Shown here one piece after another: positions 39,923 through 56,401 of a stretch of DNA of 64,000 nucleotides; within the stretch, counting starts at the first letter, position 1, and each line of letters opens with the position of its first letter. The notes beneath the pieces are model-generated. The model was not told where the DNA came from. It made no database searches and saw only the letters and a program-made list of their open reading frames with translations. The stretch is taken from contig CAZGQF010000001.1 in NCBI GenBank assembly GCA_964527545.1, positions 148,019 to 212,018 on the forward strand, read 5' to 3'. Both the position numbers and the translations under genes were made by a program. The DNA comes from Candidatus Undinarchaeota archaeon. Lineage in GTDB: Archaea > SpSt-1190 > DYHY01 > CAZGQF01.

Positions 39923-40819
39923 ATGAAGTTACAAAACTTCGTGGCAATCTTGTTCATCTTCTCGTCCGTCTTCGCGCAGGGCGGGGAGAGGGCCTCAATC
40001 AGGGAAGGCGAGAGCGAGGAGGTGATGGGGTTCAACGTCACCGTTGATGCCGTAATACAGCCGCTCAACGAGGTCTGGTTCATAGTGGGGGACGACAGCT
40101 TCGGCCTGGAGAACGGCGAGGAGAGGTGCCTCGAAAACTACAGGTTCTCACTGCTTGGCATCTCCGGGAACGGCGCTCCCTCTGAGGCGCTGGTCGGGAT
40201 CTCGGAAGGCTGCGACATCGACTGGTGCGGGGACGGCGATTGCGATGAAGATGAAGACTGCGGGAGCTGCGAGGAGGACTGCGGCTGTGGGGAGGAGGAG
40301 AGCTGCGTCGAGGGGCTCTGCGAAGAGGTGGAAGAGGAAGTCGAGGAGGTCAATGAAACGCTTGAACCTTGCGAGGCCCCTGAAAAAAGGTGCGGGGACG
40401 GCAGGTGCGGCAAGCAAGAGACTTGGCTCGACTGCTGCTACGACTGCAGGTGCCCGGACGGAATGAGGTGCTGGAGAGGGGAGTGCATTGAGACGGACGG
40501 CTGCGAAAGCGAGAGCGACTGCGGCGACGGCGACCCCTGCACAAGAGACCTCTGCAGGTCTGGAGAGTGCAAAAACGTCGCTTTCGAGGGCTGCGCTCTC
40601 GGCCAAGACTGCCTGTCCGAAGGCGCGGAGAGGGGCGGGGAGTTCTGCGACGGGAAGGGTTGGAGAGAGAAGGGTGAGGGGAAGGCAACATGTTCACACG
40701 ATTACGAGTGCGAGAGCGGCTCCTGCCTGGCAGGCCTCTGCTACGCTCCTCCAAAGGAGAGAGGCCTCTTCTCGCAGGCTGCAGGATGGCTCAGAGGCGT
40801 TCTGAGGCTCTTCCTCTGA
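39923..40819 (+). CDS. secreted cysteine-rich repeat protein
   Basis: Sec signal peptide (MKLQNFVAILFIFSSVFAQG). Multiple Cys-rich modules: CGDGDCDEDEDC, CGDGRCG..CCYDCRCPDGMRC, CGDGDPC..C. Acidic. Confidence 0.45.
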   Translation: MKLQNFVAILFIFSSVFAQGGERASIREGESEEVMGFNVTVDAVIQPLNEVWFIVGDDSFGLENGEERCLENYRFSLLGISGNGAPSEALVGISEGCDIDWCGDGDCDEDEDCGSCEEDCGCGEEESCVEGLCEEVEEEVEEVNETLEPCEAPEKRCGDGRCGKQETWLDCCYDCRCPDGMRCWRGECIETDGCESESDCGDGDPCTRDLCRSGECKNVAFEGCALGQDCLSEGAERGGEFCDGKGWREKGEGKATCSHDYECESGSCLAGLCYAPPKERGLFSQAAGWLRGVLRLFL

Positions 40820-41439: not shown

Positions 41440-41441
41440 GG

Positions 41442-41463
41442 TTTTCGATAATTGTATCGAAAA
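41442..41463. promoter_or_regulatory. perfect 9-bp inverted repeat TTTTCGATA-ATTG-TATCGAAAA upstream of the KaiC-like operon
   Basis: Seen directly at 41442-41463, about 40 nt upstream of the ATG at 41505. Candidate operator or terminator hairpin. Confidence 0.3.
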
Positions 41464-41504
41464 CGGCAAAGCATTTATCCCGACCACCACTATAAGTCTA
41501 AATA

Positions 41505-42482
41505 ATGACGGAGCTGGTTGAGACAGGGATCCCCGGCCTCGACTCCCTGTTGAGGGGCGGCCTCCCTGAGGGGAGCTGTCTCCTCCTCATTGCGCCGCCA
41601 AAGGCCGAGACCCACCTGTTCTGCCTGGAGTTCCTCTACAGGGGGACGGAAATGGGCGAGCCAGCCCTGATGGTCACCATGGACAGCTCCCCTGAGATGC
41701 TGAAGAAGAAGGGGGGGAGCTACAGCTTCGACCTGGAGGCGAAAGAGGGGGAGGGCCTCTTCAAGTGGGTCGACGGCTACTCCATCCACTCCAACAAGGA
41801 CGTGGAGAGCACGGAGAACGTGGAGAGGGTAGGCGGGCCTATGGCGCTCACCGACACTTCGATAGCGCTCTCCAGGCTCCAGGCGCGGCTGCACGGGGAG
41901 CATGGCTACTACAGGTTCATCTTCGACTCAATCTCCACCCTCCTCATCTACAACTCGCCGGAGACTGTCTACAGGTTCCTTGAGGTCATAGTGGCAAAGA
42001 CGAGGTCGTCGGGCGGCGTCGGCTTCTTCGTCCTCGGCGAGGGGATGCACGACAAGAAGGTGGAGATGGTGATAAGGCACATGATGGACGGCACTGTCCA
42101 CATCAAGGACAACCTCGAGATAGAGGCGCTCAGCCTCCCGACTCCGGGCGAGCTGAAGAAAGGCGAGCTGAAGCTCTCAGAGGACGGCTTCAGCGTGGAG
42201 ATGGAAGAAGAGGAGGTGGAGAAGAGAAGCTGGAAAGAGGAGGTGGAGAAGATGGCGATGGCGAAGAAGGAAAAAACCGCGGAGGTGGGCGTCTGGGAGG
42301 ACTCCAAGAGGGGCGGCGTCGAGGATGTCCTAGAGAAGAACGCGGCGCCGGCCATCGAAGCGATAGGGGAGAAAAAGTTCACGGAAGAGGAGCTGGAGAG
42401 AATGCTGAAAAAGGAGAAGAAGGGAAAGGGGAGGAAGACTGTGGTCTCTGCCATTGAATCCAGGCTGGAGGAAGGAAAATGA
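41505..42482 (+). CDS. KaiC/RecA-like domain protein with degenerate Walker A and K/E-rich C-terminal tail
   Basis: N-terminus GIPGLDSLLRGGLPEGSCLLLIAPPKAETHLF has KaiC-like architecture, but the GxxxxGK[ST] is replaced by APPKAE. The tail ends ...EEELERMLKKEKKGKGRKTVVSAIESRLEEGK. Confidence 0.6.
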   Translation: MTELVETGIPGLDSLLRGGLPEGSCLLLIAPPKAETHLFCLEFLYRGTEMGEPALMVTMDSSPEMLKKKGGSYSFDLEAKEGEGLFKWVDGYSIHSNKDVESTENVERVGGPMALTDTSIALSRLQARLHGEHGYYRFIFDSISTLLIYNSPETVYRFLEVIVAKTRSSGGVGFFVLGEGMHDKKVEMVIRHMMDGTVHIKDNLEIEALSLPTPGELKKGELKLSEDGFSVEMEEEEVEKRSWKEEVEKMAMAKKEKTAEVGVWEDSKRGGVEDVLEKNAAPAIEAIGEKKFTEEELERMLKKEKKGKGRKTVVSAIESRLEEGK

Positions 42483-43651
42483 TAGCTCCAACAGGGATAG
42501 CGAAGCTGGACGAGCTCCTTGGGGGAGGGCTCTCCGCAGGTGAGCTGATGCTCTTCTGGAGCGGGCCGGGGATCGACTCGTCGCCCTTCCTCTACACCAT
42601 CATAAATGCCGCACTGGAGAGAAAGGAGAAAGTCGTCTACTTCACGCAGAACAAGGGCGAGGCTGCTGTCAGGAGGGAGATAGAGAGGTACGGCTTCTCG
42701 ACGGAAAACCTCCTCTTCATCGACGGCTACTCCGGACTCATCAACCAGCCCTCCAGCGCCAGGTACGTCGTGAAGAGGGCGAAGGACCCGAAAGACATCA
42801 CCAAGACTCTTGAGAGGGCGATGGAGGCAGGCCCTTCGCTCGTCGCCTTCGACTCCCTCTCCAGCCTCGTCGACGTCTGCGGCGAGAAAGCTCTGGAAGA
42901 GGTTGAAAAGTGGAAGAGGCTGCTCGAGGAGAAGGGGGCGGCTGCAGTCTTCCTCTTCACGGAGTGGCCCTACAATGAAAAGCTGCTCGAGATGGTAGGA
43001 GAGACTGCAGACACGATAGTCAGACTCGGTGCAGTCGAGAAGGAGGTCATCCACCAGAGGTTCTTCACGGTTGTCAAGAGGGACGGCAGCTGGGTCGACA
43101 GGGCAGGCGTCCCCTTTGAGATAGCCTCGCCGGGCGGCCTCCGCATAAGATTGCCCAAGATAGTGGTGACAGGGCCGGAGGGGAGCGGCAAGAGCACTTT
43201 CATACGCTCCGCCAGCAACTACTTTGTCGGAGCTGAAAGGGCGGGGACGACAGTGGGGATAGACTACGGAAAGGTCGACTACCACGGTTTCCGCGTCTCC
43301 CTCTTCGGGACGCCCAGCCACAAAAGGTTCGACGCCATACTGCCAGTGGTGGGGGCGGGCGCCATGGGAGCGATAGTCCTTGTCGACGCCACCCGGCCCG
43401 AGACATTACCCCACGCCGACATCTTCATCGAGAAGGCGGGACTGGAGGCGGTTCCCAGGATAGTGGTCTCCAACCACACAGGCCTCCCCGGCGCGCTCAA
43501 GCCTGAAAAGATAAGAAAGAAGATGGGGTTGAAAGGGGACACCCCTCTCATCGCGCTCACTGAAAGAGAGAAGAAGGGCGGCGAGCCGGCAGCCATGGAG
43601 ACCAAGGAGATCCACAAGGTGCTGGACGCCCTCTTCGAACAGGTGGTCTGA
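42479..43651 (+). CDS. fusion protein: KaiC-like domain (degenerate P-loop) plus C-terminal P-loop GTPase-like domain
   Basis: N-terminal GIAKLDELLGGGLSAGELMLFWSGPGIDSSPF has no Lys in the P-loop. C-terminal VVTGPEGSGKSTFI (G1), TTVGIDYG (switch I Thr), LFGTPS (G3-like), then a 116-aa tail. Start overlaps the upstream stop (ATGA). Confidence 0.55.
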   Translation: MIAPTGIAKLDELLGGGLSAGELMLFWSGPGIDSSPFLYTIINAALERKEKVVYFTQNKGEAAVRREIERYGFSTENLLFIDGYSGLINQPSSARYVVKRAKDPKDITKTLERAMEAGPSLVAFDSLSSLVDVCGEKALEEVEKWKRLLEEKGAAAVFLFTEWPYNEKLLEMVGETADTIVRLGAVEKEVIHQRFFTVVKRDGSWVDRAGVPFEIASPGGLRIRLPKIVVTGPEGSGKSTFIRSASNYFVGAERAGTTVGIDYGKVDYHGFRVSLFGTPSHKRFDAILPVVGAGAMGAIVLVDATRPETLPHADIFIEKAGLEAVPRIVVSNHTGLPGALKPEKIRKKMGLKGDTPLIALTEREKKGGEPAAMETKEIHKVLDALFEQVV

Positions 43652-44002
43652 ATGGAAAGGAAAAAGGACAGGATAAAAGGGATGCTCTCCAAGCTTGTCA
43701 GGGAGGAGGGTCTGGACGGGGCAGTGCTAATCTCGCGCGACGGGCTGGTGATAGTGACGGAAGGGAAGGAACTGGACGCCGTCGCCGCCATGACAGCAGT
43801 CGGCGTCGCCTCCCTCGAGACTGCGGCAAGCGAATGGAAGCTCGGACCTGTAGAGAAGGTGGAAGTGGAGACGCCTCAGCACATGATGGTGGTGGCCGAT
43901 GCCGGGCCAGAGGCGGTATTGGCTGTCGCAGTGAAGAAGGGGAGAGACGTCTCTGAGAAACTGAAAGGGGCAGGCAAGGAGATAGAGAAGGTGCTGGGCT
44001 GA
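43652..44002 (+). CDS. Roadblock/LC7 (MglB-like) domain protein
   Basis: 116 aa. GAVLISRDGLVIV...MTAVGVASLE...MVVADAGPEAVLAVAV follows the alpha-beta-alpha Roadblock pattern. Starts 1 nt after the GTPase-fusion stop. Confidence 0.7.
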   Translation: MERKKDRIKGMLSKLVREEGLDGAVLISRDGLVIVTEGKELDAVAAMTAVGVASLETAASEWKLGPVEKVEVETPQHMMVVADAGPEAVLAVAVKKGRDVSEKLKGAGKEIEKVLG

Positions 44003-44467
44003 ATGGCCATCAAGATCGACGTCGAGAAATACTCGCCAATCGCCAAGTTCCTCGGCCTCTCCGCCCTCGTCCTCGTTTTCCTCGCCTTCTTCAAGAGCCC
44101 GCCTCCGCCTGAAGAGTACGACGAAAGGTGCTTCTACGACCACTGCGTCGAGAGGTGCGGGGAGATGGAGTACCGCTTCGGCCGGTTCGACTACGGGGAG
44201 AGGGTGAGGTGCTTCTGCAAGACCAACATAACTGAGATCTCCGTCCAGCTCTACAGCCTGGACGGAAGCGAGTGCCCTCCAGTGACGAGGGACAGGAGGT
44301 GCGACGAGAGCTTCTGCGAAGAGACCTGCATGAAAGACGAGGGCTTCCTTCCCAACCACTCCTCCCTCGTCCTGGAGGACGGCTGGTACGTCTGCATCTG
44401 CCGCGACATGGATGTTGGCTGGTACGAGGAGGCCTACCACGTGGAGGCCTTTAAGTGCTCTTCCTGA
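44003..44467 (+). CDS. membrane-anchored Cys-rich extracytoplasmic protein
   Basis: N-terminal TM (FLGLSALVLVFLAFF), then 14 Cys in 120 aa (CFYDHCVERCGEMEY...CFCK...CDESFCEETC...). Start overlaps the Roadblock stop. Confidence 0.4.
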   Translation: MAIKIDVEKYSPIAKFLGLSALVLVFLAFFKSPPPPEEYDERCFYDHCVERCGEMEYRFGRFDYGERVRCFCKTNITEISVQLYSLDGSECPPVTRDRRCDESFCEETCMKDEGFLPNHSSLVLEDGWYVCICRDMDVGWYEEAYHVEAFKCSS

Positions 44468-44494: not shown

Positions 44495-47400
44495 TTGAAG
44501 GTCATGCGGGCCCAGGCAGCTCTGGAGTACCTCGTGATAGTTGGCATGATGCTCGCAATCCTCATCCCCGCCTTCTGGTACTCGCTCCGCACCTCGCAGC
44601 AGACTCTCGACCTGCGCCAGACAAAAGACGCAGCCCAGAAGGTGGCGAGGACGGCGGACACTGTCTACGCCCTCGGGCCGGGCTCGAGGATGTATGCCCG
44701 GATACGCCTCCCAGCCACTGTTGAGGACGAGCAGGTCGGAAACAACACCGTCCTCTTCCGCGTCGACGTCGGCCAGGGGCCGCAGGACATCTTCGAGCTG
44801 ACCAAGGGGGACGTGATAGGCGTGCTGCCTGAAGAGCGGGGAGAACACCGCGTACTTGTGAAGATGCTTGAGAGCGGCATCGTCCAGATAGGGGAGGCGA
44901 TCTCCTTGTCGCCCGACCCTTTCGAGGCGACCATAGCTCCCGGCGCTTGGAACGACTCCCTCTTCAACCTCTCCTCCAACGTCGACTACACAGTCTTCTC
45001 ACTCTCGCCCTCAATCTCGGGCGAGATAGAGAGCTGGGGGGTGATTGGGGCGGCGGACGCCCTGGTCTCATCGCTTTCCCCATACGGCTGGGACCTCTTC
45101 GACCTCAACATCTCCGTCCCGCCTTCACAGGCGGCCGGCACCTACGACGGCACGCTTCTCGTTTCCTCCAACCAGAGCGAGGCGACCTCCGCGATACAGA
45201 TCACAGTGCCTTCCGTGCTCAACTACCTCTTCATCGACATCTACGGCTATGAGATGGTGGGCGACATCGGCTTCGTGGTCTCCGGCGACCATCTCTCGCA
45301 GGACGAGAGGGAGGTTCTTGACTGGCTTGAGAGCGAGGAGAGCGGCGAAGGCTACCTCTGGGACTACGACATCATCTCAGACTCGCCCCCCTCCTCTCTC
45401 CGCAACCACTCCGCAGTCCCCCAGAGCTGGGAGGCGACCAGCGGCGGGAGCGGCTACTCCGAAGTCGTCTCGAGCGATGACATCTACGCGACCGCCACTG
45501 TCGCCCAGTACGCTACGGAGAACTTGACAGTCCACTTCCCTCCGCTCGGTCTCGAGAAAGACCCTGACAGCGTCAACTTCACGGCTGAGTACAGGATGAG
45601 CGCCACTGCAGGCTCCCCCTCCCAGGGCGAGTCCCAAGTCGACTCAATGGACGACGTATCGGACTGGAGCGAGGAGTACGGCGCGACCAACGGCGACTTC
45701 ACCACCGACTCGGGCACAAAGCAGGAGGGGACTGCCTCCATGGAGATAAGCTATGACTTCCCGGCGCCCGGCCCGTCCTCGAGCGAGGAGCTGACAGACG
45801 GCGGCTCGATCTCAGGGCCCTCCTCCGGCAGGATAACGGGCGGCGACCACACAGACACCCACTCCACGACAGACGGCGACTACTACTACCTCGGCTACGA
45901 GGTCAACGGCAACTGGAGGAGGAGGAACGGCTGGATGGAGCTGGAGTACGACATCTCTAGCCTGGGCATCGACCCGTCAGACCTGACAGACATCACTCTC
46001 GACGCCGACTTCTGCCACTCTGGGGACGAGACGTCGCCGGCCTGCGGACAGGGCGACGCGATGGAGGGCTTCCTCTGGGGCAGCCAGCTTGTCCAGGTCT
46101 ACGACCACGCCAACTCTGAATGGGACTCGCTCGGCTCCCTCTCCGTCAACACTGGAAGCGACGCGGAGCAGAGCGGGAGCTGGTCGGCATCATCGCCGCT
46201 CTCCAACTATGTCAGCGGCAGCGACACCGTCGACGTCAGGTTCGAGGTCGACTTCTACCTCGCCTGGACCTACGACGCCGTGCTCCTCTTGGACTACGTC
46301 CCCCTCTCACTCACATGGTCTGGCGGTTCGGAGACGCTCGACGAGTACGTCATCAAGAAGAGCTTCTCCCAGGAGGACTGGACAGGCTCCCAGAACCTCT
46401 CTGTCTGGGTCTACGGCGACGCCAACGGCGAGGACATCACGCTCAACATCACCGACTCCGGCGGGGGGAGCTATGAGTGGACGCCGCTCGACGTGAACTG
46501 GAGCGGCTGGCAGTGGAAAAAGTTCGACCTTTCCGGGACGAGCGGCGTCGACCTGTCGTCTGTCAACGGCGTCAAAATCAAGCTGGAAGAGACGGCGGCA
46601 GGCGACAACCCGTCCGGCACTCTCTACCTCGACGACCTCCGCAGGTTCTACACCGCGGGGGGCGGAAACTTCTTTTGCGACCTTCTCTGCCATGACGGCT
46701 CCTCCTGGACCGAGGTGGCGCCAGGGCTGGCCCAGACGTCAGACACCACCCAGCTCTGGGACGTGACCGCCTGCCTCTCGACAAAGGAGGAGGCAAACGA
46801 CGCAGACCTCAAGTTCTCCTGCTACAACGAGATCTCTTCCGGCCAGACGTTCTACCTCGACTACTCCCGGCTCGACGCCTCCTATCTCGGCCTGGCGTCA
46901 GGCGACGCTGAGAGCTGGAACACGTCGACCGGCGACTCAGGCTCGTCTGAAATCCAGTCAAGCAACGACGTCTACGCAGATGAGGAGATAACGCCGGAAG
47001 GGACGGAGAAGCTCGAAATCGACTTCCCAGACCTCGGCGTGACTGGCGCTCCCTTCTCTGTCAACACCACAGTGGAATACAGGTACAGCGACGTAGCCGA
47101 GGGAGGGAGGGAAGGCGGAAGCGACGTGGTCGACTATCTCAACCTCTTCCCCTCAGACAACCCAGTCAACGTCCAGCTCAACCAGCCCTTCAACCTGACA
47201 GTCACCCTCTGGGACCAGCAGGGCGATCCCGTGAGCGGGAAGGAGAGCTACTTCTCGGTCAACAGCATCAAGGACGACAACGGGGCCGCTGCCGCCTTCT
47301 CGACACAGCCCGCTCTCGAGTCGGAGCCAGGGAAGTACGCCATCGAGATAACTATGACCTCCGGGAACGACGGAGCGACCTACTACGTCAACGGCGAGTA

Positions 47401-48838
47401 CCTGGAGGGGAGCGTGCCCGACAGGTACCAGATGTGGTGGCACGGGACAGTCAACCTCAACGAGAGCGCCAAGACGGGCGTGGCCTGGGTCTTCCTGCCG
47501 GAGACTGACTTCGTGACGCTTCCCTCGACCGGCGGGACCATCAACCTCAAGCTCTACTGCATCGACCAGACAAGCTCCCCGCTCAACTCCCTCTCGACCA
47601 CAGACTTCAAGATCTCCAATGTCAAGAGCGAGACGGGGAGCGCAGTGGGCGGCTGGAGCCAGGGGACTGTCACTTTCGAAGGCGACGGCATCTACAAAAT
47701 ACCTATCACGTTCTCCTCCCTCCCTGAGGGCGAAAACCTCTTCCTAAGGGGGAACTGGAAAGAGCTGAACAAGGAGATCGACTTCGGCGCCTCTTTCTTC
47801 GTCAACTCGTCAGATCCATACGCCCCCGCGCCAGACAACCCCTACGTGCCAGGCTCTCCGGCGGCCGGCCTTGAGTGTGAGCTGGAGTGCAGGGGAGAGG
47901 GCGGCTGGTCTTCACTCGGCCCCCTCCCCCAGAACGACAGCGACACTCTCGCGACCTTCTCACTCGACTCCTGCGTCTCCACACAGGCCATCGCCAACGA
48001 CATCCACACCCGCTTCAACTGCACCAACCACTTCTCCGACAACGCAACGCTCTACGTCGACTACGCCAACGTCAGCGTCGGCTATGTCGGCGAGGAGAGC
48101 TGGAATGAACTGAACGAGACAGACCTCTGCGGCTACGGGGCGATAATGGTGGGAGAGCACGAGAGCTCGCTCGACGCGGCGCTCCTCGACTTCCTCGACG
48201 ACTGCGGCTGCGTGATGCTTGTGGGAGAGGCGGCCGCCTCCGCCCCTGTCTCTCTCGGATACGCCAACTCGAGCTTCTCAGGGCTCAACTCCACGCTCTA
48301 CGTGGTCGACGACTCAAACTACGTGACGGCCAACTACTCCAACTCCTCGCTCGTCTCCGTCTACTCGCAAAGCGACATGATGTGGGGGTCGGACGCAGAC
48401 GGCGTTCTCGCCACCGCCGAGGGCAACACTCTCGGCGAGGACGGCAGATTGATGTACTACGGCGTCAGGACGCAGCACCTCTCTTCAGACGGAAACAACA
48501 CTCTGACCCGCTTCGTGGACAGGTGCCTCTCCAAGTCGGTTACGCCAGGCACTCTCGAAGAGAAGAGCGATTTCAGGAAAAACGAGGTCATCGTCTACCG
48601 CATCTCCCTCAGAGACCAGGGCCTCTCTCCCGCAGACTCAAGCGACGTCGACTCGTGGGTCTGGATGGCGAACGGGACGCTGGCCTACCAGAGACTCGAT
48701 GCCTCGACGTCCGGGGGCGCCCTCCAGGAGAGCTACACCATTCCCTCCAGCGGGCCGTCCGGGACGTGGACAGTCAACGCGACCGCCGCAGGGCCGTACT
48801 CCTCTGTCCAGAACTCCACGACATTCGAGGTCGCATAG
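44495..48838 (+). CDS. giant (1447 aa) pilin-headed surface protein / putative adhesin, N-glycosylation sequon-rich
   Basis: N-terminus MKVMRA/QAALEYLVIVGMMLAILIPAF is a class III signal peptide. The rest is low in charged and high in S/T/N/D/G residues, with dozens of N-x-S/T sequons. No TM elsewhere. Confidence 0.6.
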   Translation: MKVMRAQAALEYLVIVGMMLAILIPAFWYSLRTSQQTLDLRQTKDAAQKVARTADTVYALGPGSRMYARIRLPATVEDEQVGNNTVLFRVDVGQGPQDIFELTKGDVIGVLPEERGEHRVLVKMLESGIVQIGEAISLSPDPFEATIAPGAWNDSLFNLSSNVDYTVFSLSPSISGEIESWGVIGAADALVSSLSPYGWDLFDLNISVPPSQAAGTYDGTLLVSSNQSEATSAIQITVPSVLNYLFIDIYGYEMVGDIGFVVSGDHLSQDEREVLDWLESEESGEGYLWDYDIISDSPPSSLRNHSAVPQSWEATSGGSGYSEVVSSDDIYATATVAQYATENLTVHFPPLGLEKDPDSVNFTAEYRMSATAGSPSQGESQVDSMDDVSDWSEEYGATNGDFTTDSGTKQEGTASMEISYDFPAPGPSSSEELTDGGSISGPSSGRITGGDHTDTHSTTDGDYYYLGYEVNGNWRRRNGWMELEYDISSLGIDPSDLTDITLDADFCHSGDETSPACGQGDAMEGFLWGSQLVQVYDHANSEWDSLGSLSVNTGSDAEQSGSWSASSPLSNYVSGSDTVDVRFEVDFYLAWTYDAVLLLDYVPLSLTWSGGSETLDEYVIKKSFSQEDWTGSQNLSVWVYGDANGEDITLNITDSGGGSYEWTPLDVNWSGWQWKKFDLSGTSGVDLSSVNGVKIKLEETAAGDNPSGTLYLDDLRRFYTAGGGNFFCDLLCHDGSSWTEVAPGLAQTSDTTQLWDVTACLSTKEEANDADLKFSCYNEISSGQTFYLDYSRLDASYLGLASGDAESWNTSTGDSGSSEIQSSNDVYADEEITPEGTEKLEIDFPDLGVTGAPFSVNTTVEYRYSDVAEGGREGGSDVVDYLNLFPSDNPVNVQLNQPFNLTVTLWDQQGDPVSGKESYFSVNSIKDDNGAAAAFSTQPALESEPGKYAIEITMTSGNDGATYYVNGEYLEGSVPDRYQMWWHGTVNLNESAKTGVAWVFLPETDFVTLPSTGGTINLKLYCIDQTSSPLNSLSTTDFKISNVKSETGSAVGGWSQGTVTFEGDGIYKIPITFSSLPEGENLFLRGNWKELNKEIDFGASFFVNSSDPYAPAPDNPYVPGSPAAGLECELECRGEGGWSSLGPLPQNDSDTLATFSLDSCVSTQAIANDIHTRFNCTNHFSDNATLYVDYANVSVGYVGEESWNELNETDLCGYGAIMVGEHESSLDAALLDFLDDCGCVMLVGEAAASAPVSLGYANSSFSGLNSTLYVVDDSNYVTANYSNSSLVSVYSQSDMMWGSDADGVLATAEGNTLGEDGRLMYYGVRTQHLSSDGNNTLTRFVDRCLSKSVTPGTLEEKSDFRKNEVIVYRISLRDQGLSPADSSDVDSWVWMANGTLAYQRLDASTSGGALQESYTIPSSGPSGTWTVNATAAGPYSSVQNSTTFEVA

Positions 48839-48874: not shown

Positions 48875-49252
48875 ATGGCAGGACAGAGCTCTCTTGAAAG
48901 CTTGGTCAGCATAGGGTTCATGCTCTTCCTCTTCACCTCCACCCTTGCAGTCGCCTACCAGAAGGAAAGGGAGACATCGCGAGTTGGGGAGTTCCTGGCC
49001 AACCGGACCGACTGCGACGCAATCGCCCTTGAGGTGGCCGCGGTCTTCACGAGCGGGGAAGGAACGAGGACCGTCAGGAAGATCGGCAGGAGAGCGGAGG
49101 TCTACGGCGATGCAGGCCAGATAGTGGTGGGCGACGTCTTCTGCCTGACCATTGCCAACGTCACCAACGGCACCCACAGCAGCTTCACGCTGGAGGAGGG
49201 CGAAGTGGAGATCCTCTCCCTTGGCAGGGAGGTGAGAGTAAGGAATGTCTAG
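48875..49252 (+). CDS. minor pilin-like protein (class III signal peptide MAG/QSSLESLVSIGFMLFLF)
   Basis: 125 aa. Prepilin-like N-terminus with Q+1 and E+5. Confidence 0.5.
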   Translation: MAGQSSLESLVSIGFMLFLFTSTLAVAYQKERETSRVGEFLANRTDCDAIALEVAAVFTSGEGTRTVRKIGRRAEVYGDAGQIVVGDVFCLTIANVTNGTHSSFTLEEGEVEILSLGREVRVRNV

Positions 49253-49718
49253 GGGACAGTCCGTGATGCTCGACTTCCTGCTGGCCGCCTTCGTCTTCAG
49301 CGTCGTCTTCTCAGCAGTGATGCTCTCCCTCCGCAACGTCCAGGAGACCTTCGACGCGGAAGAGAGGAGGTGGAGGATACAGAGGGGTGCCATACAGGCG
49401 GCCGACGTCCTTGTGAAGAGCAGGGGTGTGCCCTTCAACTGGAATGAAAGAGAGACAAGGCTTCCCGGCCTCAAGTCGATGGGGCGTTCCCTGGAGAGCG
49501 GCAAGCTCTCCGCCTTCGAAGGCCTCGACTATGAGGAGACGAAGGAGATGCTCGGGCTGGAAGGCCTGGAGTACAGAGTAGAAGTGAAGGGCAACGAGAC
49601 CTCCATGAGCATGGGAAGGCCGGAGAGCGGCGACCTGCGCGTCGCATCGACAAGGGTAGCCCTCCATAACGGCGAGCCCGTCTTCCTCAAAGTCACAGTC
49701 TGGGAGGGTAAAGGATGA
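49245..49718 (+). CDS. minor pilin-like protein (MSRG/QSVMLDFLLAAFVFSVVF)
   Basis: 157 aa. Overlaps the upstream gene by 8 nt. Prepilin-like N-terminus. Confidence 0.5.
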   Translation: MSRGQSVMLDFLLAAFVFSVVFSAVMLSLRNVQETFDAEERRWRIQRGAIQAADVLVKSRGVPFNWNERETRLPGLKSMGRSLESGKLSAFEGLDYEETKEMLGLEGLEYRVEVKGNETSMSMGRPESGDLRVASTRVALHNGEPVFLKVTVWEGKG

Positions 49719-50158
49719 GCAGGGGCTATGTCTTCAGCTACGACGCGGCGCTGGGGACGCTCCTCGCCATAATCATACTCTGGGCGGTCCTCTGGGAGCT
49801 CCGACTGCCCGGCGTCCTCTCGGAGGTCCAGGTCGTGCGGAGGGCCAACGACGCCCTCGAGGTCCTCATAGAGGGTGGGACCATGGAAAGCATGGAAGAA
49901 GGGACGATTGAGGAGGGGATGGAAAAGCTCCTCCCCCGGAACTACCGCTTTCGCCTCCTCGTCTCTTCCCACTCCCACTCTGGCAGCGGCTTCGAAGTTG
50001 AAGAGAGCGTGAGCGTGGGAGATAATCTGCCGCTGGAGAGGCTCGACCCAGAGACCGCGACGCCGCTCCCCTTCAGAACGGAGAGGACTTTCGTGACCCT
50101 CTCCGGCAACGAAATAGAGTCCTACCACCGGGCGACGATGTGGGTGTGGCTGGAATGA
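49715..50158 (+). CDS. minor pilin-like protein (MSRG/YVFSYDAALGTLLAIIIL)
   Basis: 147 aa. ATGA overlap with the upstream gene. Prepilin-like N-terminus. Confidence 0.45.
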   Translation: MSRGYVFSYDAALGTLLAIIILWAVLWELRLPGVLSEVQVVRRANDALEVLIEGGTMESMEEGTIEEGMEKLLPRNYRFRLLVSSHSHSGSGFEVEESVSVGDNLPLERLDPETATPLPFRTERTFVTLSGNEIESYHRATMWVWLE

Positions 50159-50952
50159 GCAGGGGTATACTCTTCACAGTCAGCCTTACTCTCATCTCGC
50201 TGGTCGTCTTCTCCTTCGCCTCCACGATAATGGGCGGCTACGAAGAGAAGCGGGGAGAGGAGGCCCAGCTTTTGGTCGTGGAGAGGGTGGGCAGGACTTA
50301 CGACAACCTCGAATGGAACGTGAGGGAGATCTTCTCCACCAGCGGTGTGGAGACCGCCTTCTACGGAGACGTGGTCTCTTTCACTGAAGAGCTCCCCAAC
50401 GAAGAGTCCGTTGACTTCGTCCAGAACGTCGAGCGCTACGCGGAGTTTGCGGAGAAAAAGGGCGTCGATCTGGAGACGGACGAGATGACGGAGTATCTCA
50501 CCCTCAGGGTGGAGCCATACGGAGGCCTCTACTCGCACGAAGACTATGGCGGCAATGATCTCTTCTTCAGCTCCCCCCAGACTCCAGAGCTCTACCGATT
50601 CCACATCACCCTCTCAGACGGCGGCCTCCAGCGGATAGACTGGGATCCGTACGAGTCGGGAAGCCTCCCCGTCAACATCTATGTCCAGGGACAGCAGTCC
50701 GGAAACGAAACAAGGCTTATTAACCCCTCTGGGCTCACTGTGGCAAACGTAACGCTTAACGGCAACAGGGGGGTCATAAGCATCCGTTTTGAGGGCGGGA
50801 ACATGACAGCGACCAGCTACGTCAGCAGCACTGTGGAGATTCAGACCAACGTTACAGTGGATGAAGTCTCCAAAATCGTCCTCCCTGGAGCGCTGAAAGT
50901 GTGGGTGCCCGGGACGGGGGCCAGCAGGAACAGCACTGCGAGGGTGGTGTGA
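50140..50952 (+). CDS. minor pilin-like protein (MSRG/ILFTVSLTLISLVVFSF), sequon-rich
   Basis: 270 aa. Overlaps the upstream gene by 19 nt. Prepilin-like N-terminus. Confidence 0.45.
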   Translation: MGVAGMSRGILFTVSLTLISLVVFSFASTIMGGYEEKRGEEAQLLVVERVGRTYDNLEWNVREIFSTSGVETAFYGDVVSFTEELPNEESVDFVQNVERYAEFAEKKGVDLETDEMTEYLTLRVEPYGGLYSHEDYGGNDLFFSSPQTPELYRFHITLSDGGLQRIDWDPYESGSLPVNIYVQGQQSGNETRLINPSGLTVANVTLNGNRGVISIRFEGGNMTATSYVSSTVEIQTNVTVDEVSKIVLPGALKVWVPGTGASRNSTARVV

Positions 50953-52544
50953 TGGCCAACTCCAAGAAGAGGGAGAACCTGGAGAAGCTGAAGGAGGGGA
51001 TCAAGGATGAGCCCTCCGGTAAAAGCGGATTCAGGCTCGAGAAGCTCTTCGACATAGGGACCTATGCAAGCCTCGTGGAGAGGTTCACCTCACACGAGGA
51101 GCCGGACCCGAAACCCAGGAAGCTGAAGCTGAAAGAGACGGTAGAGAACTTCTTCGACAAGAACGCAAAACCCACCATAGAGGCGGTCGAGTCAGGGAGG
51201 TTCGACAAGGAGGAGCTTGAGGAGCTTCTAGATCACGAGAGAGAAAACAAAGAAAGGAAGACCGTTTTGGGGGTGATAGAGTCGAAGCTGGGGGAGATGG
51301 AGACCGTCGAGGACTTCTTCGACAAGAACGCTAAGCCCACCATAGAGGCGGTCGAGTCAGGGAGGTTCGACAAGGAGGAGCTAGAAGAGCTTCTAGAGCA
51401 CGAAAAAGAAGAGAAAGAGAGAAAGACAGTCGTCTCGGCGATAGAGTCGAAGCTGGAGGAGATGGAGACCGTCGAGGACTTCTTCGACAAGAATGCGGAG
51501 CCCACCATAGAGGCGGTCGAGTCAGGGAGGTTCGACAGAAAAGAGCTGAAAGAGCTGCTTGAACACGAGAGGGAGGGGAAGGAGAGAAAGACAGTCGTCT
51601 CGGCGATAGAGTCGAAGCTGGGGGAGATGGAGACCGTCGAGGACTTCTTCGACAAGAACGCTAAGCAGATCATAGAGGCCGTGGAGGGGGGCAGGTTCAG
51701 CGACGAGGAGCTCGAAGAATTGCTGAGGCACGAGAGAGAGGGGAAGGAGAGAAAGACCGTTTTGGGGGTGATAGAGGCGGTCATCGGCGAGCTGCCCCCT
51801 GAAGCTGAAGAGAGAATTGGCAGGATACGCTACCAGGTCGAAGTGGAGAGGGGGAGGAGAGAAGGCAAGACGGAAGTCGAAGTCGTTGACATCGAGGAGA
51901 GAGAAGAGTGGCGCGGGGGCATAGGCGGCCACAAGGCAGAGGTCGCAGAGGAAGGGAAAGAGAACTTCGTCGCGCGGATCTTCGAGGAAAGAAAAGAGAG
52001 AAAGGAAGGTCTCCTCTCCAAGCTGGTCAGAAAGGTGAAGAGTCTCTTCGGCCTCCCCAAGGAAGAAAAGGAAGAGCTCGAGGAGGTGGAAGGGGGGATC
52101 ATCAGGCCGGGCGCGGAGGTGGTGGTCAAGCTCGAGGAGGTTGAGGGCTGGGAGGAGAGCGGCAGGAAGAGTGAAGGCGTGGAGGAGCAAGGAGAGAGGG
52201 CTGAGGTAGGAGAGTCGTCAAAACAGGAGGCAGAATGTGCTGATGAACAGGCGAACAGGAGAAAGGTGGAGGAGTGGGACGTCAGCGACATCTCCCTCTC
52301 TGAAGCGAGCGAGAAGCTGGTCACTGGGATCGACAAGCTTTTCTTCATAGTCAAGAAAAAGGAAGGGGTGGGGCTCGAGGCGGCGGCCGGAATGCTGGGC
52401 GTTACGCGCGGCAAAGTAGACGAATGGGCAAAGATACTGGAAGACGAGGGGCTCATCACAATTCACTATCCGGCGGTGGGCGAGCCCAAGCTGGTCCCAA
52501 AGAACGAGACAAGGGGTGGGAGCCACGAAATCGAAGGAGATTGA
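50952..52544 (+). CDS. cytoplasmic repeat protein (4.x copies of a 55-aa K/E-rich repeat) with C-terminal winged-helix-like domain
   Basis: ATG at 50952 overlaps the upstream TGA. Repeats ETVEDFFDKNAKPTIEAVESGRFDKEELEELLEHEREGKERKTVVSAIESKLGEM. C-terminus VTGIDKLFFIVKKKEGVGLEAAAGMLGVTRGKVDEWAKILEDEGLITIHYP. No TM. Confidence 0.5.
   Translation: MANSKKRENLEKLKEGIKDEPSGKSGFRLEKLFDIGTYASLVERFTSHEEPDPKPRKLKLKETVENFFDKNAKPTIEAVESGRFDKEELEELLDHERENKERKTVLGVIESKLGEMETVEDFFDKNAKPTIEAVESGRFDKEELEELLEHEKEEKERKTVVSAIESKLEEMETVEDFFDKNAEPTIEAVESGRFDRKELKELLEHEREGKERKTVVSAIESKLGEMETVEDFFDKNAKQIIEAVEGGRFSDEELEELLRHEREGKERKTVLGVIEAVIGELPPEAEERIGRIRYQVEVERGRREGKTEVEVVDIEEREEWRGGIGGHKAEVAEEGKENFVARIFEERKERKEGLLSKLVRKVKSLFGLPKEEKEELEEVEGGIIRPGAEVVVKLEEVEGWEESGRKSEGVEEQGERAEVGESSKQEAECADEQANRRKVEEWDVSDISLSEASEKLVTGIDKLFFIVKKKEGVGLEAAAGMLGVTRGKVDEWAKILEDEGLITIHYPAVGEPKLVPKNETRGGSHEIEGD
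51136..51795. repeat. 165-bp tandem direct repeat, 4 full copies plus a partial (51136, 51301, 51466, 51631)
   Basis: agaccgtcgaggacttcttcgacaagaa recurs exactly every 165 bp. Copies are about 85-95% identical, in-frame and coding. Confidence 0.85.
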
Positions 52545-54051
52545 CCGCTACGAGCTCGAGGTCGACAACGTCAAGGCAGAGATAAGAATCGTGGCCGGGG
52601 AAGACCTCGTCACACTCTACAAAGTGACAGTCAAGAAGCCGGACGTTGCCACGCGCGCGCTGCTCAACGAAGTCCGCTCCGAGCTGGTCTCTGAGGTGAG
52701 CTTCGGGGGGAGGGAGATACTCAACCCGGAGGCGATAGAGGAGCTCAAGAAGAAGTTCAAGCAGAAGGCTGAGGAGCTGCTTTCAGAGCACCTTCCCGAC
52801 ATAAAGGAGATCGACAGGGACTTCCTGATAGGCCACCTCCTCCATGAGATGCTCGGGCTCGGGAAGCTGGAGATCATACTGTCCGACCCCGAGCTTGAGG
52901 ACCTCGGCGTCAACTGTGCGGAGGAGCCCATCTGGCTCTACCACAAGAAGTACGGATGGCTGAAGACTGATGTCTACTTGGAGAGCGAGGACGAGATAGA
53001 GAATTTGATGAACATAATCGCCCGCAGGGTGGGGAGGTCGATAACCATCCGGGACCCCCTCCTGGATGCCCACCTCCTGAAAGGCGACCGTGTAAACGCA
53101 ACCCTCTACCCCATCTCCACCAAGGGGAACACCATAACCATCAGGAAGTTCTCGGAGAGGCCCTGGACCATCACAGACTTCCTCCAGAACGGCACGACCA
53201 GCAAGGAGGCCGCGGCCCTCGTCTGGCTGGCCATGCAGTACGAGCTGAACATCCTCATCTCCGGCGGCACCGCCTCCGGCAAGACCAGTTTCCTCAACGT
53301 CTGCATGCCCTTCATACAGCCCAACCACCGCATCGTCTCCATAGAGGACACCCGCGAAATCAAGCTCCCTGATTTCCTCTACTGGACCCCTTTTACCGTG
53401 CGCGAGCCAAACCCTGAGGGAAAGGGCGGAGTAACCATGCTCGAACTCATGGTCAACGCGCTCCGCACCAGGCCGGACAGGATAGTGGTGGGAGAGATAA
53501 GGCGCTCCAGGCAGGCAGAGGTCCTCTTCGAGGCGATGCACACAGGCCACAGCGTCTACTCCACGCTGCACGCCGACACCGCCGCCCAGACGGTGCGCCG
53601 CCTCATAAACCCGCCCATCGAGATACCTGAGACGATGCTGGACTCCGTCCACCTAAACGTGGTCATGTTCAGGGACAGGAGGAGGGGCATCCGCAGGACG
53701 CTGGAGGTTGCCGAGCTGGTCCCCACCGGCGAGATGGGGACGGGCTTCAAGATTAACGACATCTTCAAGTGGAAGCCGCGCGGAGACCGCATAGTCTCCC
53801 ACTCAGACAGCATCAGACTGCTGGAGGAGATAAATCTCCACACCGCAATGACGGAGAAGGAGATAGAAGAGGACATCGAGGAGAAGGAGAGGATTCTCTC
53901 CTGGCTCTCCAGGAACAACATAAAAAACGTCAACGCGGTGGGCAGGACGGTGGCCGAGTACTACAAGGACCACGACATGACAGTCGCCCAGATAGAGAGG
54001 AACGTCTCGCCCGAGAAGCTGCTTGGGGATGAGGTAGAGCTCCATGCCTGA
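52516..54051 (+). CDS. type IV pilus/archaellum assembly ATPase (FlaI/TadA/GspE family)
   Basis: GTG start. Walker A GGTASGKTS, Walker B DRIVVGEIR, His-box TLHAD. N-terminal domain of about 200 aa. Overlaps the downstream membrane gene by 8 nt. Confidence 0.85.
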   Translation: MGATKSKEIDRYELEVDNVKAEIRIVAGEDLVTLYKVTVKKPDVATRALLNEVRSELVSEVSFGGREILNPEAIEELKKKFKQKAEELLSEHLPDIKEIDRDFLIGHLLHEMLGLGKLEIILSDPELEDLGVNCAEEPIWLYHKKYGWLKTDVYLESEDEIENLMNIIARRVGRSITIRDPLLDAHLLKGDRVNATLYPISTKGNTITIRKFSERPWTITDFLQNGTTSKEAAALVWLAMQYELNILISGGTASGKTSFLNVCMPFIQPNHRIVSIEDTREIKLPDFLYWTPFTVREPNPEGKGGVTMLELMVNALRTRPDRIVVGEIRRSRQAEVLFEAMHTGHSVYSTLHADTAAQTVRRLINPPIEIPETMLDSVHLNVVMFRDRRRGIRRTLEVAELVPTGEMGTGFKINDIFKWKPRGDRIVSHSDSIRLLEEINLHTAMTEKEIEEDIEEKERILSWLSRNNIKNVNAVGRTVAEYYKDHDMTVAQIERNVSPEKLLGDEVELHA

Positions 54052-54934
54052 GAGGAAATTCCTGCCAGGCGTCCCCCTTCCGCTGCCTCTCGCCCTGCAA
54101 CTCTCCAAGCCGCTCCTCGGCCTCGCCGAGTCATTGGTAGTCTTCCTCCCCTATTTGAAGCTCAACCTCCAGCAGGCGGAGATAGAGCTCGACCCGCGGG
54201 AGTTCCTGGCAGTGGGGGTGTTCGCCTCTCTTCTCTACTTCCTCGCCTCCGGCTTTATCATCTTCACCTTCAGCTACGTGATGACAGGGGAGGTAATCCT
54301 GTGGCTGCCCGTCGTGGTGGCCCTGCTGTCGGGCGGCGGCGCACTCTTCTACCACCTGGCCGCGCCGCACCTCATCGTCCAGAGGAAGGTCAAGGAGATA
54401 GAGAAGAACCTCCTCTTCAGCATGAGGAGCCTGATGGTCCAGGTATCGAGCGGCGTCCCGCTCTACACCGCCCTCACCACCATAGCCCGCAGCGGATACG
54501 GCAAGGTAAGCGACGAGTTCGCCAAGGCTGTCGACAAGATGGCGACGGGGACACCGCAGGACGTGGCGCTCGGCAAGATAACCCTTGGTAACCCCTCCGT
54601 CTTCTTCCGTAGGGCGATCTGGCAGATAACCAACGGCATGCGCTCCGGCAGCAACATCTCCGAGGTGCTCGACTCCGTGACGGAGAACCTGGCCAGGGAG
54701 CAGTCCATACAGATAAAGAGGTACGGCTCGCAGCTGAACCCCCTCGCCCTGGTCTACATGATAGTAAGCGTCATCGTCCCCGCCCTGGGGATGACCTTCG
54801 TCATAGTGCTCAGCTCCTTCCCTTCGCTGCCCATCCACGAGTACATGCTCTGGGCCTTCCTGGGGCTCCTCGCGGTGGCGCAGTTCATGCTCCTGGGCCT
54901 GATAAAGTCGAGGAGGCCAAACCTGCTGGGGTGA
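54044..54934 (+). CDS. TadB/TadC/FlaJ-like polytopic membrane protein (T2SS-F domain), first half
   Basis: 296 aa. TM-flanked cytoplasmic T2SSF-like domain (LYTALTTIARSGYGKVSDEFAKAVDKMATG...). Confidence 0.75.
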   Translation: MPERKFLPGVPLPLPLALQLSKPLLGLAESLVVFLPYLKLNLQQAEIELDPREFLAVGVFASLLYFLASGFIIFTFSYVMTGEVILWLPVVVALLSGGGALFYHLAAPHLIVQRKVKEIEKNLLFSMRSLMVQVSSGVPLYTALTTIARSGYGKVSDEFAKAVDKMATGTPQDVALGKITLGNPSVFFRRAIWQITNGMRSGSNISEVLDSVTENLAREQSIQIKRYGSQLNPLALVYMIVSVIVPALGMTFVIVLSSFPSLPIHEYMLWAFLGLLAVAQFMLLGLIKSRRPNLLG

Positions 54935-54938
54935 AAGA

Positions 54939-55910
54939 TTGAACTACATAGCAATAGCGAGATGGCTGCCCCCGAAGCTCGGGGAATGGATGAGGAAGTC
55001 TCTTGTCTACGCAGACATCGATGTCAACCCGGAAAAGCTCCTCGGCTTCCTTTCGGTCTTCGGCCTGTCCCTCTCCCTCGCGCTGGCAGCCGACCTCTAT
55101 CTCTTCTTCGGCTTCAACCCCCTGCTAGGCTTCTGCGGCAGTCTCGCCGGATTCTCCCTCCTCTTCTACCTCTTCCTCTTCTTCATGATAGAGAGCAGGT
55201 CCCGCTTCATAGAGAACGTCCTGCCCGACGCCCTCCAGCTGATGAGCAGCAACATAAGGGTGGGCATGACCACCGACAGGGCCTTCCTGCTCAGCGCCCG
55301 CCCCGAGTTCGGACCGCTGGAGAAGGAGATAAGGCGTGTGGGGAAGAAGATCTTTTCGGGAGGCGAGATCGACAAGGAGCTGCTGGCAATGGCAAAGAGG
55401 ATAAGGTCGAACGTCTTCGACAGGACCATCTCCATAATAGTCGAAGGGATCAGGTCGGGCGGCGAGCTGGACAGGATCCTCGTGCAGACCGCCCACGACT
55501 TGAGGCGGCAGGAGAGTGTGAGGAAGGAGATAGAGGCCACCATACTGATGTACTCGGTCCTTGTCTTCATGGGCGTCGGCTTCGCCGCGCCCTTCCTCTT
55601 CGGCGTCTCCAGCTACCTCGCCGAGGTGCTGGGGGAGAGGATGGCCAGCTTCGGCTTCGTGAGGGGGCTTACTCAGACGCTCAACCTGGAAGCGGGCGGC
55701 GCCTCCTTCTCCCCTCAGTCGATAGTGGTCTTCTCTGTCTCATCGCTGACAATGTCAAGCGTCTTCGGGAGCCTCCTGATCGGCCTCATCCAGGAAGGCA
55801 ATGAGAAGGTGGGCGCAAAGTACATACCCGTCTTCCTCACCCTGAGCATCACTCTCTTCTTTTTGACGAGGAAAGTGATGGTAAGCTTCTTCGGACAGCT
55901 CCTCACATGA
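54939..55910 (+). CDS. TadC/FlaJ-like polytopic membrane protein (T2SS-F domain), second half
   Basis: 323 aa. TTG start in the ORF track (alternative ATG at 54990). Second T2SSF-like domain (LQLMSSNIRVGMTTDRAFLLSA...). Different frame from the upstream half. Confidence 0.75.
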   Translation: MNYIAIARWLPPKLGEWMRKSLVYADIDVNPEKLLGFLSVFGLSLSLALAADLYLFFGFNPLLGFCGSLAGFSLLFYLFLFFMIESRSRFIENVLPDALQLMSSNIRVGMTTDRAFLLSARPEFGPLEKEIRRVGKKIFSGGEIDKELLAMAKRIRSNVFDRTISIIVEGIRSGGELDRILVQTAHDLRRQESVRKEIEATILMYSVLVFMGVGFAAPFLFGVSSYLAEVLGERMASFGFVRGLTQTLNLEAGGASFSPQSIVVFSVSSLTMSSVFGSLLIGLIQEGNEKVGAKYIPVFLTLSITLFFLTRKVMVSFFGQLLT

Positions 55911-55911
55911 G

Positions 55912-56355
55912 CTACTCGACTTCGCCCGTGCATTCGCCTATCTCTTCGTGGTCGACGATGCCATCGATTGTGCTGAACTGGAACTTCACTGTCGCTATGT
56001 ACCTCTCGCCTTCGTCAAATCCTGAGAACCCCGAGACGGTGATTATCTCAGACTTTCCGGCGTCGATGGCGTAGTCCGTTGAGTCAGTCTCCGTCTCGCC
56101 CTCTATCACCACCCGCGTCCTGTTGATGTTGACCTTGGCGCCCGCCCCGTTCGCTATCTTGATTATGAAGTCACCGTTGTCCATGAAGGCGTGCTCCCTG
56201 TACTCAAGCTGGTCGAGGCCCACGCACGACTTCTGTGTGTAGGTAGAGGGGTTGAGAATGCCCATTGCGTAGAGTGCGCCGCCAGCTATGAGGATGATTA
56301 TGATGACCCACCCGTAGGTCATCAGGTACTCGAGGGCGCTCTGGCCGCGTCTCAC
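55912..56355 (-). CDS. major pilin-like protein, paralog 1 (MRRG/QSALEYLMTYGWVIIIIL)
   Basis: 147 aa. Class III signal peptide. Tail-to-tail with the TadC-like gene. Confidence 0.7.
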   Translation of the reverse strand: MRRGQSALEYLMTYGWVIIIILIAGGALYAMGILNPSTYTQKSCVGLDQLEYREHAFMDNGDFIIKIANGAGAKVNINRTRVVIEGETETDSTDYAIDAGKSEIITVSGFSGFDEGERYIATVKFQFSTIDGIVDHEEIGECTGEVE

Positions 56356-56401
56356 GGGAGGAATAGCCCCCAGACAGTATTAATGCTTTCCAATGGGGCG
56401 C

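Follow-up and report, generated by a model that had tools for sequence, protein, structure and literature searches.

What is the function of three tightly coupled genes for a KaiC-like protein, a fusion of a KaiC-like domain with a small GTPase, and a Roadblock/LC7 protein at the head of an archaeal pilus locus? This question is raised by positions 41505-44002 of a 64,000-nt stretch of archaeal DNA (contig CAZGQF010000001.1). The whole stretch is called the window here, all coordinates are positions in it, and the open reading frames (ORFs) were taken from its translated sequence. An earlier note on this DNA had proposed that the GTPase and the Roadblock protein form a switch, not described before, that controls the assembly or localisation of pili. 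We found that the window copy is a motif-degenerate member of a widespread archaeal module; a role as a pilus switch was only partly supported. The module consists of KaiC1, which has an aberrant P-loop, an inactivated KaiC domain (iKaiC) rigidly fused to a GTPase of the MglA type (GTPGQ class), and an MglB/CvnB-like Roadblock protein. Starting from the observed domain identities, motif states, conservation of the triad and operon-like coupling, we favour with moderate confidence that it is a portable archaeal signalling or scaffold module, which the window lineage would have built into its pilus operon.

Domain composition of the three genes

The genes and domains of the module in the window are the following:

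41505-42482, + strand: KaiC1, 325 aa, single-domain KaiC-like protein with the degenerate P-loop IAPPKAETH and a charged C-terminal tail

42479-43651, + strand: fusion ORF, 390 aa, KaiC/RecA fold and Ras-superfamily small-GTPase domain

42479-43147, + strand: iKaiC N-domain of the fusion, residues 1-223, with SGPGIDSS in place of Walker A

43148-43651, + strand: small-GTPase-fold C-domain of the fusion, residues ~224-390, with GPEGSGKS, Thr-Thr, GTPSH, NHTG and LTE

43652-44002, + strand: Roadblock/LC7 protein (MglB/CvnB-like), 116 aa, Asp-Gly pair kept (SRDGLV)

KaiC1 matched the Pfam families KaiC (1.3e-20) and DUF7504 (6.7e-15), and residues 4-223 of the fusion matched KaiC with 1.3e-15. 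The KaiC/RecA fold was thus found by Pfam in both proteins and, for the fusion, also in the predicted structure, since Foldseek aligned the N-domain model with the KaiC-like protein PH0284 (PDB 2dr3) at a target TM of 0.84 and an rmsd of 2.4. Residues 227-386 of the fusion gave matches to P-loop, Arf, Ras and MMR_HSR1 families, all under the Pfam cut-offs. The C-domain was recognised by the NCBIfam small_GTP domain (TIGR00231) with 2.2e-8, and comparison of the fusion with solved structures returned Rab5a with 2.6e-8. When a profile of the C-domain was built from 17 family members and compared to the PDB, Arl8 was matched with 1e-19, and the matches to Arl8, Sec4 and Arf spanned 1e-19 to 1e-15. 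The C-domain modelled alone (pLDDT 84.5) led Foldseek to Arf, Arl, Rab and Asgard ArfR (E 6e-11, TM ~0.7). Models, Foldseek and the profile all showed the small G-domain fold with its six-stranded sheet and five helices. The AlphaFold2 model of the full-length fusion, based on a 30-sequence alignment, reached a pLDDT of 89.2 and a pTM of 0.82. In this model residues 220-231 form a continuous strand that connects the KaiC domain with beta-1 of the G domain, which points to a rigid two-domain protein.

The protein encoded at 43652-44002 matched Pfam Robl_LC7 with 6.6e-12 and 45.5 bits, the cut-off being 23. Its nearest solved relative was CvnB5 of a Streptomyces conservon (PDB 3leq, 8.6e-7). The Asp-Gly pair described for MglB proteins that are coupled to GTPases of groups 2-5 (PMC4316618) is present. 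The profiles, the AlphaFold2 models and Foldseek thus bore out the KaiC-GTPase fusion and the 116-aa Roadblock protein starting 1 nt later, as they had been described in the earlier note, and at the level of the fold nothing spoke against a GTPase or a Roadblock domain. The motifs that had been quoted for the fusion (GPEGSGKST, the switch-I Thr and LFGTPS) are all present.

Direct reading of the sequence confirmed an ATGA overlap of KaiC1 and the fusion at 42479-42482 and a TGAATG junction of the fusion and the Roadblock gene at 43649-43654, which leaves a zero-nt spacer. The latter two ORFs share a reading frame with one TGA between them, so read-through would yield a KaiC-GTPase-Roadblock polypeptide. 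This in-frame arrangement is probably incidental, since the genes overlap out of frame in many relatives.

State of the nucleotide-binding motifs

The motif states were compared in an alignment of 114 fusion proteins. Three of them, the window sequence and its two nearest relatives, P0002 and P0003 (the latter from L081/L082), are called the window clade. Walker A is missing from the KaiC-like domain in 114 of 114 proteins; at this place the consensus reads xPGV[ED]Gxx, with SGPGIDSS in the window. Because no family member has a Walker A, we assigned the N-domain to inactivated KaiC, that is, a pseudo-ATPase. iKaiC is a named domain class (PMC5847659). KaiC1 also lacks the Walker A motif GxxGxGK[ST], and its P-loop in the window (APPKAETH) is more degenerate than that of most orthologs (GPPMSGK[ED]). 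Of the KaiC proteins of the window, only KaiC3, whose gene closes the locus, has an intact motif (GGPGTGKST).

The G domain has kept some of its motifs and lost others. G1 (GPxxxGK[ST]) is invariant in the family and reads GPEGSGKS in the window. The Thr-Thr pair of G2 is intact in the window (AGTTVG), and in the family, too, a Thr stands where group 1 has its Arg finger. At G3, 92 of the 114 proteins have GTPGQ and the window has GTPSH, with Ser for the glycine and His for the Gln. G4 is NKxD in ~100 of 114; the window has NHTG. At G5 the window has LTE and not SA. The combination of GTPSH, NHTG and LTE is restricted to the window clade. The earlier note's statement on nucleotide-binding residues therefore holds for G1 and the switch-I Thr; it had passed over the missing Walker A of the N-domain and the loss of the G3 Gly-Gln pair and of NKxD.

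In translational GTPases the catalytic residue is a His at the place of this Gln. Such a His also occurs in family members with intact G4 (GTPGH, GIPSH), so the G3 change alone is not decisive. A reading of GTPSH as loss of catalysis was accordingly softened, and only the loss of G4 is unique to the clade. G4 is the motif for guanine specificity (PMC4316618). With NHTG in place of NKxD this determinant is gone, which makes a classical GTP/GDP switch doubtful in the window clade. GTPSHKRF, VVSNHTGLPGAL and IALTE are identical in the three sequences, which share 64-66% overall identity; the variant motifs are therefore under selection and not decaying. The G domain of the window clade is probably no longer a guanine-specific on/off switch; it may bind nucleotides without base specificity or be a pseudo-GTPase with a mainly structural role.

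A different G4 variant, NKxN instead of NKxD, was present in eight fusions from DPANN archaea and Altiarchaeota (L002, L003, L010, L011, L012, L013, L030 and L034). The exchange of Asp for Asn at G4 is the classic switch of Ras-like proteins from guanine to xanthine nucleotides. Its natural occurrence across an entire subgroup is unusual.

These motif states bear on two other explanations. In the first, the module would be a true GTP/GDP polarity switch of the MglA/MglB type, in which GAP/GEF control by the Roadblock protein would set where or when pili assemble. The parts are indeed homologous to MglA (GTPGQ class) and MglB, G1 and the switch-I Thr are intact, and His for Gln is tolerated in members with NKxD. 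Against this stand the clade-specific NHTG, the Ser in place of the G3 glycine and the altered G5. Moreover, a G domain fused rigidly to a pseudo-ATPase, as predicted by the model with the pTM given above, is no free diffusible switch, and no RomR/RomX-like or other polarity components were seen. The MglA-like switch proposed in the earlier note is thus doubtful for the window clade, and judged from these sequences we regard this explanation as improbable.

In the second explanation, KaiC1 and the fusion form a static pseudo-enzyme ring without catalysis which, together with the Roadblock protein, serves as a cytoplasmic pilus scaffold without signalling, like ArlX or ArlCDE. All three P-loop-fold domains are degenerate in the window (APPKAETH, SGPGIDSS, NHTG) and the degenerate motifs are nevertheless kept within the clade, as would be expected from such a ring. 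On the other hand, neither the G1 motif GPEGSGKS nor the Thr-Thr of switch I varies, which argues that binding of nucleotide phosphate is still selected, and the G motifs are fully canonical in the rest of the family. A purely static ring therefore appears quite unlikely to us.

Distribution of the module and its link to pilus genes

When one genome of each GTDB species was scanned with a sequence pattern, fusion relatives were found in 343 loci (species genomes). They belong to Altiarchaeota, Woesearchaeota, Nanoarchaeota, Archaeoglobaceae, Methanoperedenaceae and ANME-2, and further to Methanocellales, Methanobacteriaceae, Bathyarchaeia and Thermoproteota. A profile search of 1.84 billion cluster representatives gave 249 matches at E <= 1e-30. 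Around 100 of these were full-length two-domain proteins, all with the N-terminal iKaiC domain, and stand-alone GTPases of 160-190 aa strongly matched the C-domain in the same search.

The best GTDB matches of the window fusion were from Altiarchaeales, with 40-46% identity. Elongation factor EF-2 of the window had 84% and 80% identity to two metagenomic proteins and at most ~61% to named ones (Candidatus Altiarchaeota). These values point to a deep-branching uncultured relative of Altiarchaeota. Besides EF-2 the window encodes RpoA', S7 and a split RpoB (20249-23550, - strand; B'' at 22048-23550 and B' at 20249-22051).

Gene neighbourhoods were analysed in 80 retained loci, 73 of which have a Roadblock gene along with the fusion. 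KaiC1 orthologs, mostly with the P-loop GPPMSGK[ED], are located directly upstream of the fusion in 49/80, and the order KaiC1, fusion, Roadblock is found in 42/80, with 4-nt overlaps or gaps of 0-2 nt. From the retained order and the co-occurrence of the Roadblock gene we concluded that the triad is conserved as an independent unit. In Bathyarchaeia and Thermoproteota the upstream slot is taken by a KaiC3-type gene with a Walker A nearer to the canonical form (strict motif in 3/5 loci), and many loci combine the module with a KaiC3-type gene. In Altiarchaeales a gene of ~315 aa precedes the fusion; we considered it as a diverged KaiC1 and rejected this, since it is ThiL/AIR-synthase-like.

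Most fusion copies sit among housekeeping or sensor genes. In loci L001, L010-L014, L020 and L060, which are from DPANN archaea and Altiarchaeales, the cluster includes genes for HAMP, PAS and FIST proteins and another Roadblock gene. In such an expanded cluster (e.g., L014, 11187-20691) genes for HAMP membrane proteins are each followed by a Roadblock gene, PAS and FIST genes are included, and KaiC1 comes last, a layout that resembles the conservon. It is this interleaving of the module with HAMP, PAS, FIST and second Roadblock genes that led us to regard it as a portable signalling unit.

In the window the module is followed by a complete type IV pilus-like system. The features of this locus outside the module are:

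41440-41504, + strand: AT-rich intergenic gap of 65 nt, with a TATA-like 'catttatc' ~27 nt upstream of the KaiC1 ATG

44003-44467, + strand: Cys-rich protein, 154 aa, one N-terminal membrane helix, TGAATG coupling to the Roadblock gene

44504-48838, + strand: giant prepilin-headed protein, ~1445 aa, class III signal peptide and C-terminal MG2-like domain

48875-50952, + strand: four small pilin-like genes, candidate minor pilins, whose translations show class-III-like N-terminal motifs and hydrophobic helices

50901-52544, + strand: repeat protein, with a charged ~55-aa repeat in four copies, encoded immediately before the pilus ATPase

52516-54051, + strand: FlaI/PilB-type assembly ATPase, named by reading the translation (orthologs in L005, 1e-183, and L014, 4e-158, labelled likewise)

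54044-54934 and 54939-55910, + strand: two TadC-like platform proteins, named by reading the translations (L014 orthologs, 2e-47 and 2e-44, labelled likewise)

55912-57395, - strand: three paralogous major-pilin-like genes with QSALEYL class III signals (paralogy 1e-40 to 1e-67)

57437-58159, + strand: KaiC3, canonical single-domain KaiC-like ATPase (Pfam KaiC 3e-58) with intact Walker A, closing the locus

The Roadblock gene and the Cys-rich gene are joined by TGAATG at 44000-44005. The giant gene follows after a gap of 36 nt; its probable start is ATG 44504 (MRAQAALEYL), as in the L081 ortholog. The overlaps reported in the earlier note, and the translational coupling onward to the Cys-rich and the pilin-headed gene, are thus real. 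The gap upstream of KaiC1 is a possible operon promoter, a candidate by its sequence.

The giant protein passed the class III motif scan with its N-terminus MRAQAALEYLV..., matched MG2 with 5.9e-6 (Pfam) and its L081 counterpart with 2.3e-241; it had no recognisable homolog among characterised proteins. We regard it as a probable adhesin carried on the pilus. Among the four small pilin-like genes, 50140-50952 passed the strict class III scan and the other three failed; the gene at 49245-49718 matched DUF7287 with 8.3e-5. The Cys-rich protein matched no Pfam family and is kept solely in the closest relative (L081/L082, 4.8e-66). No Pfam family was found for the repeat protein, including its distinct C-terminal region; a homolog adjoins FlaI in L005. 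Further pilin-like genes outside the main locus (62468-63355 and 9950-10504, both - strand) are related to the major pilins with E 1e-5 to 1e-7. Just upstream of the locus (39923-40819) a secreted protein of 298 aa is encoded, which is very rich in Cys, Asp and Glu (repeated CGDG/CxxC) and has no Pfam match. A scan of the window with Rfam gave three tRNAs and nothing else.

We searched the neighbourhoods for FlaI, TadC, pilins, the giant protein and the Cys-rich protein by direct and iterative searches, the iterative ones spanning 83 loci. Pilus machinery was found in L005, L014 and L081 only, and adjacency to pilins recurs in just three lineages: the window clade, Nanoarchaeota (L014) and Methanobacteriaceae. 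L081 keeps the five-gene synteny of KaiC1, fusion, Roadblock, Cys-rich and giant pilin-like gene with the same coupling at ~65% identity. In L014 the order is KaiC3, an adhesin-like gene, four pilins, FlaI, TadC, TadC, fusion, Roadblock and onward; KaiC3 brackets the pilus locus here as in the window, where it stands at the closing end. All six Methanobacteriaceae loci (L038, L040, L052, L058, L062 and L071) have two genes with class III signals directly upstream of the module. Their order is rearranged to pilin-like, pilin-like, KaiC1, Roadblock, fusion, KaiC, KaiC, followed by a TPR protein, and the last two KaiC genes have the P-loop GPPK[VT]GKS. Neither FlaI nor TadC was found within the flanks of these six loci. 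Two further loci were rejected as pilus support: L005, where FlaI lies 7 kb away on the other strand and no pilins were seen, and the fusion-bearing L083, which has an MG2-bearing protein of 1514 aa ~7.5 kb away and in which no class III signals were found. The linkage to pilin genes in relatives that the earlier note had suggested looking for is therefore real in three lineages and is not a family-wide trait. We concluded that the pilus link is lineage-specific and not a property of the fusion family.

A further connection between the module and the pilus genes is a shared repeat. The KaiC1 tail (42290-42470) contains one copy of the ~55-aa charged repeat (…EKNAAPAIEAIGEKKFTEEELERMLKKEKKGKGRKTVVSAIESRLEE) that occurs in four copies in the protein encoded at 50901-52544. 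The two regions matched each other with 6.9e-32 (phmmer) and ~70% DNA identity, and the repeat matched no Pfam family. It may be a shared docking element, as far as the sequence can suggest this. The KaiC1 tail of L081 differs: it is Lys-rich and not of this repeat type.

How far does this support a function of the module in piliation? Several observations weigh against the module having been built into a pilus operon with a regulatory task. A FlaI-type ATPase (or TadC) lies within 10 kb of the fusion in only 2/80 loci (L005 and L014), and at the level of the family the pilus link is not above chance, which we roughly estimate at ~3%. In Methanoperedens, ANME and Archaeoglobi the neighbours are S19e-like, YhbY-like and CysS-like, as judged by eye from their sequences. 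Co-transcription of 41505-44002 with the pilin genes is suggested by gene spacing, its sole basis. Since all three P-loop domains are degenerate in the window clade, 'regulation' may also be the wrong word.

These points would fit a general signalling or housekeeping module whose adjacency to pilus genes is incidental, the result of gene packing in a compact genome, with co-transcription being functionally meaningless. The 78 of 80 loci without FlaI or TadC within 10 kb, the housekeeping-like or sensor neighbours elsewhere, and the Altiarchaeales, the closest named relatives, with a ThiL-like gene upstream and no pilins nearby, all argue in this direction. Incidental adjacency does not readily account for the zero-nt junctions to membrane and pilin genes that are kept in L081 despite ~65% identity, for pilin or machinery neighbours that arose independently in Nanoarchaeota L014 and in Methanobacteriaceae, or for a KaiC1 tail repeat in common with the FlaI-adjacent protein. 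In addition, published statistics tie KaiC and Roadblock genes to archaeal pilus loci (PMC4858521). We consider incidental adjacency rather unlikely. A pilus role in the window lineage is instead suggested by the zero-spacer junctions into pilin genes, the L081 synteny and the repeat of the KaiC1 tail, and further by the bracketing by KaiC3 as in L014 and the pilin-like neighbours in 6/6 Methanobacteriaceae loci.

Proposed role and comparison with known systems

If the module was indeed recruited to the pilus operon, it most likely acts, by analogy, on the cytoplasmic face of the pilus machine and would in this way affect piliation. The KaiC-fold domains of KaiC1 and the fusion would oligomerise, and the oligomer would dock on or near the FlaI-like ATPase, as ArlH does on ArlI. 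The G domain and the Roadblock dimer would modulate the association of the oligomer with FlaI. KaiC3 at the far end of the locus could provide a phosphorylation input.

A bolder interpretation, which we put forward tentatively, would make the triad a distinct, ancient and widespread archaeal signalling system, a counterpart of the conservon on KaiC-fold scaffolds, whose outputs include type IV pili. The window clade would then have converted it to a guanine-independent pseudo-GTPase subunit of the pilus motor.

KaiC-like proteins have been proposed as hubs of poorly understood archaeal signalling, and pairs of a Roadblock protein and a GTPase are regarded as precursors of the regulation of GTPases in eukaryotes. 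The fusion joins both ideas in one polypeptide, in hundreds of archaeal species from DPANN archaea to methanogens and ANME, which makes the module a promising target for biochemistry. The window clade is a natural experiment, in which loss of guanine specificity coincides with entry of the module into a pilus operon. The significance of the locus is nevertheless below the estimate of the earlier note, because the link of KaiC and Roadblock genes to pili is already published and the module is not pilus-specific. Makarova, Koonin and Albers report a strong association of KaiC-family ATPases with archaeal type IV pilus systems, and likewise Roadblock arCOG02603 at archaeal type IV pilus loci (PMC4858521). 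Considering these reports, the established iKaiC concept (PMC5847659), the mostly other contexts of the fusion in 343 species genomes and the loss of NKxD and of the G3 Gly-Gln pair in the window clade, the claim of a previously undescribed pilus switch was an overreach. Literature term searches did not find an archaeal KaiC paired with a GTPase or a Roadblock protein; an earlier description of the fusion may exist.

Among the known systems, the MglA/MglB pairs of Myxococcus xanthus and Thermus thermophilus resemble the module in that a Ras-superfamily G domain is encoded beside a Roadblock/LC7 protein; in Myxococcus, type IV pili are under the control of MglA. Wuichet and Sogaard-Andersen described MglA groups 2-5 with a G3 without Asp (GTPGQ) and with Thr, in place of the group-1 Arg finger, beside the G2 Thr (PMC4316618). 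The fusion family shows both features (GTPGQ, G-TT), and the window keeps G-T-P and TT of them but not G-Q. As in these groups, a cognate Roadblock/MglB gene is adjacent; its spacer is zero nt in the window, and a Roadblock gene is present in 73/80 loci overall. Their survey covered single-domain GTPases only, and according to it the archaeal MglA genes of group 4 have no conserved neighbours (PMC4316618). The published MglA family is thus single-domain, whereas the G domain is fused to iKaiC here. The archaeal unit also differs by its second KaiC-like gene and, in the window clade, by GTPSH and NHTG. The likeness to MglA is one of motifs and Roadblock adjacency.

The actinobacterial conservon also combines a GTPase of the GTPGQ type (CvnD) with a Roadblock protein (CvnB), in an operon with a membrane sensor. 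Among solved structures the window Roadblock is nearest to CvnB5, and in DPANN archaea genes for HAMP membrane proteins stand beside the Roadblock genes of the module. The four-gene set of the conservon (CvnA kinase, CvnB, CvnC with DUF742, CvnD) is not present, as neither a kinase nor DUF742 was found in the window genes scanned. The conservon itself, unlike the module, is without KaiC-like components, and the window copy has no sensor gene, HAMP proteins being restricted to the DPANN relatives. Rag GTPases with Ragulator and the Asgard GTPase-Roadblock proteins are similar as scaffolded signalling units of small GTPases and Roadblock-fold dimers (PMC10933270). In the Rag/Asgard case the Roadblock domain is fused to the GTPase, whereas in the archaeal module it is separate and the fusion partner is the KaiC fold.

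The nearest mechanistic precedent is ArlH, a KaiC-like protein whose hexamer docks on the assembly ATPase ArlI (PMC8978795). ArlH/FlaH and the module have in common a single-domain KaiC/RecA fold encoded in a type IV pilus-related operon. The match to the FlaH model (PRK06067) was full-length but weak (1.4e-4), with 21.5 and 15.6 bits against a cut-off of 194, so that membership in this family was not supported. ArlH binds ATP, autophosphorylates and has neither a G domain nor a Roadblock partner, whereas here the fusion is without Walker A and that of KaiC1 is aberrant. By analogy to these systems, the best reading of 41505-44002 is a conservon-like or ArlH-like regulatory or scaffold unit that would have been recruited to the pilus operon.

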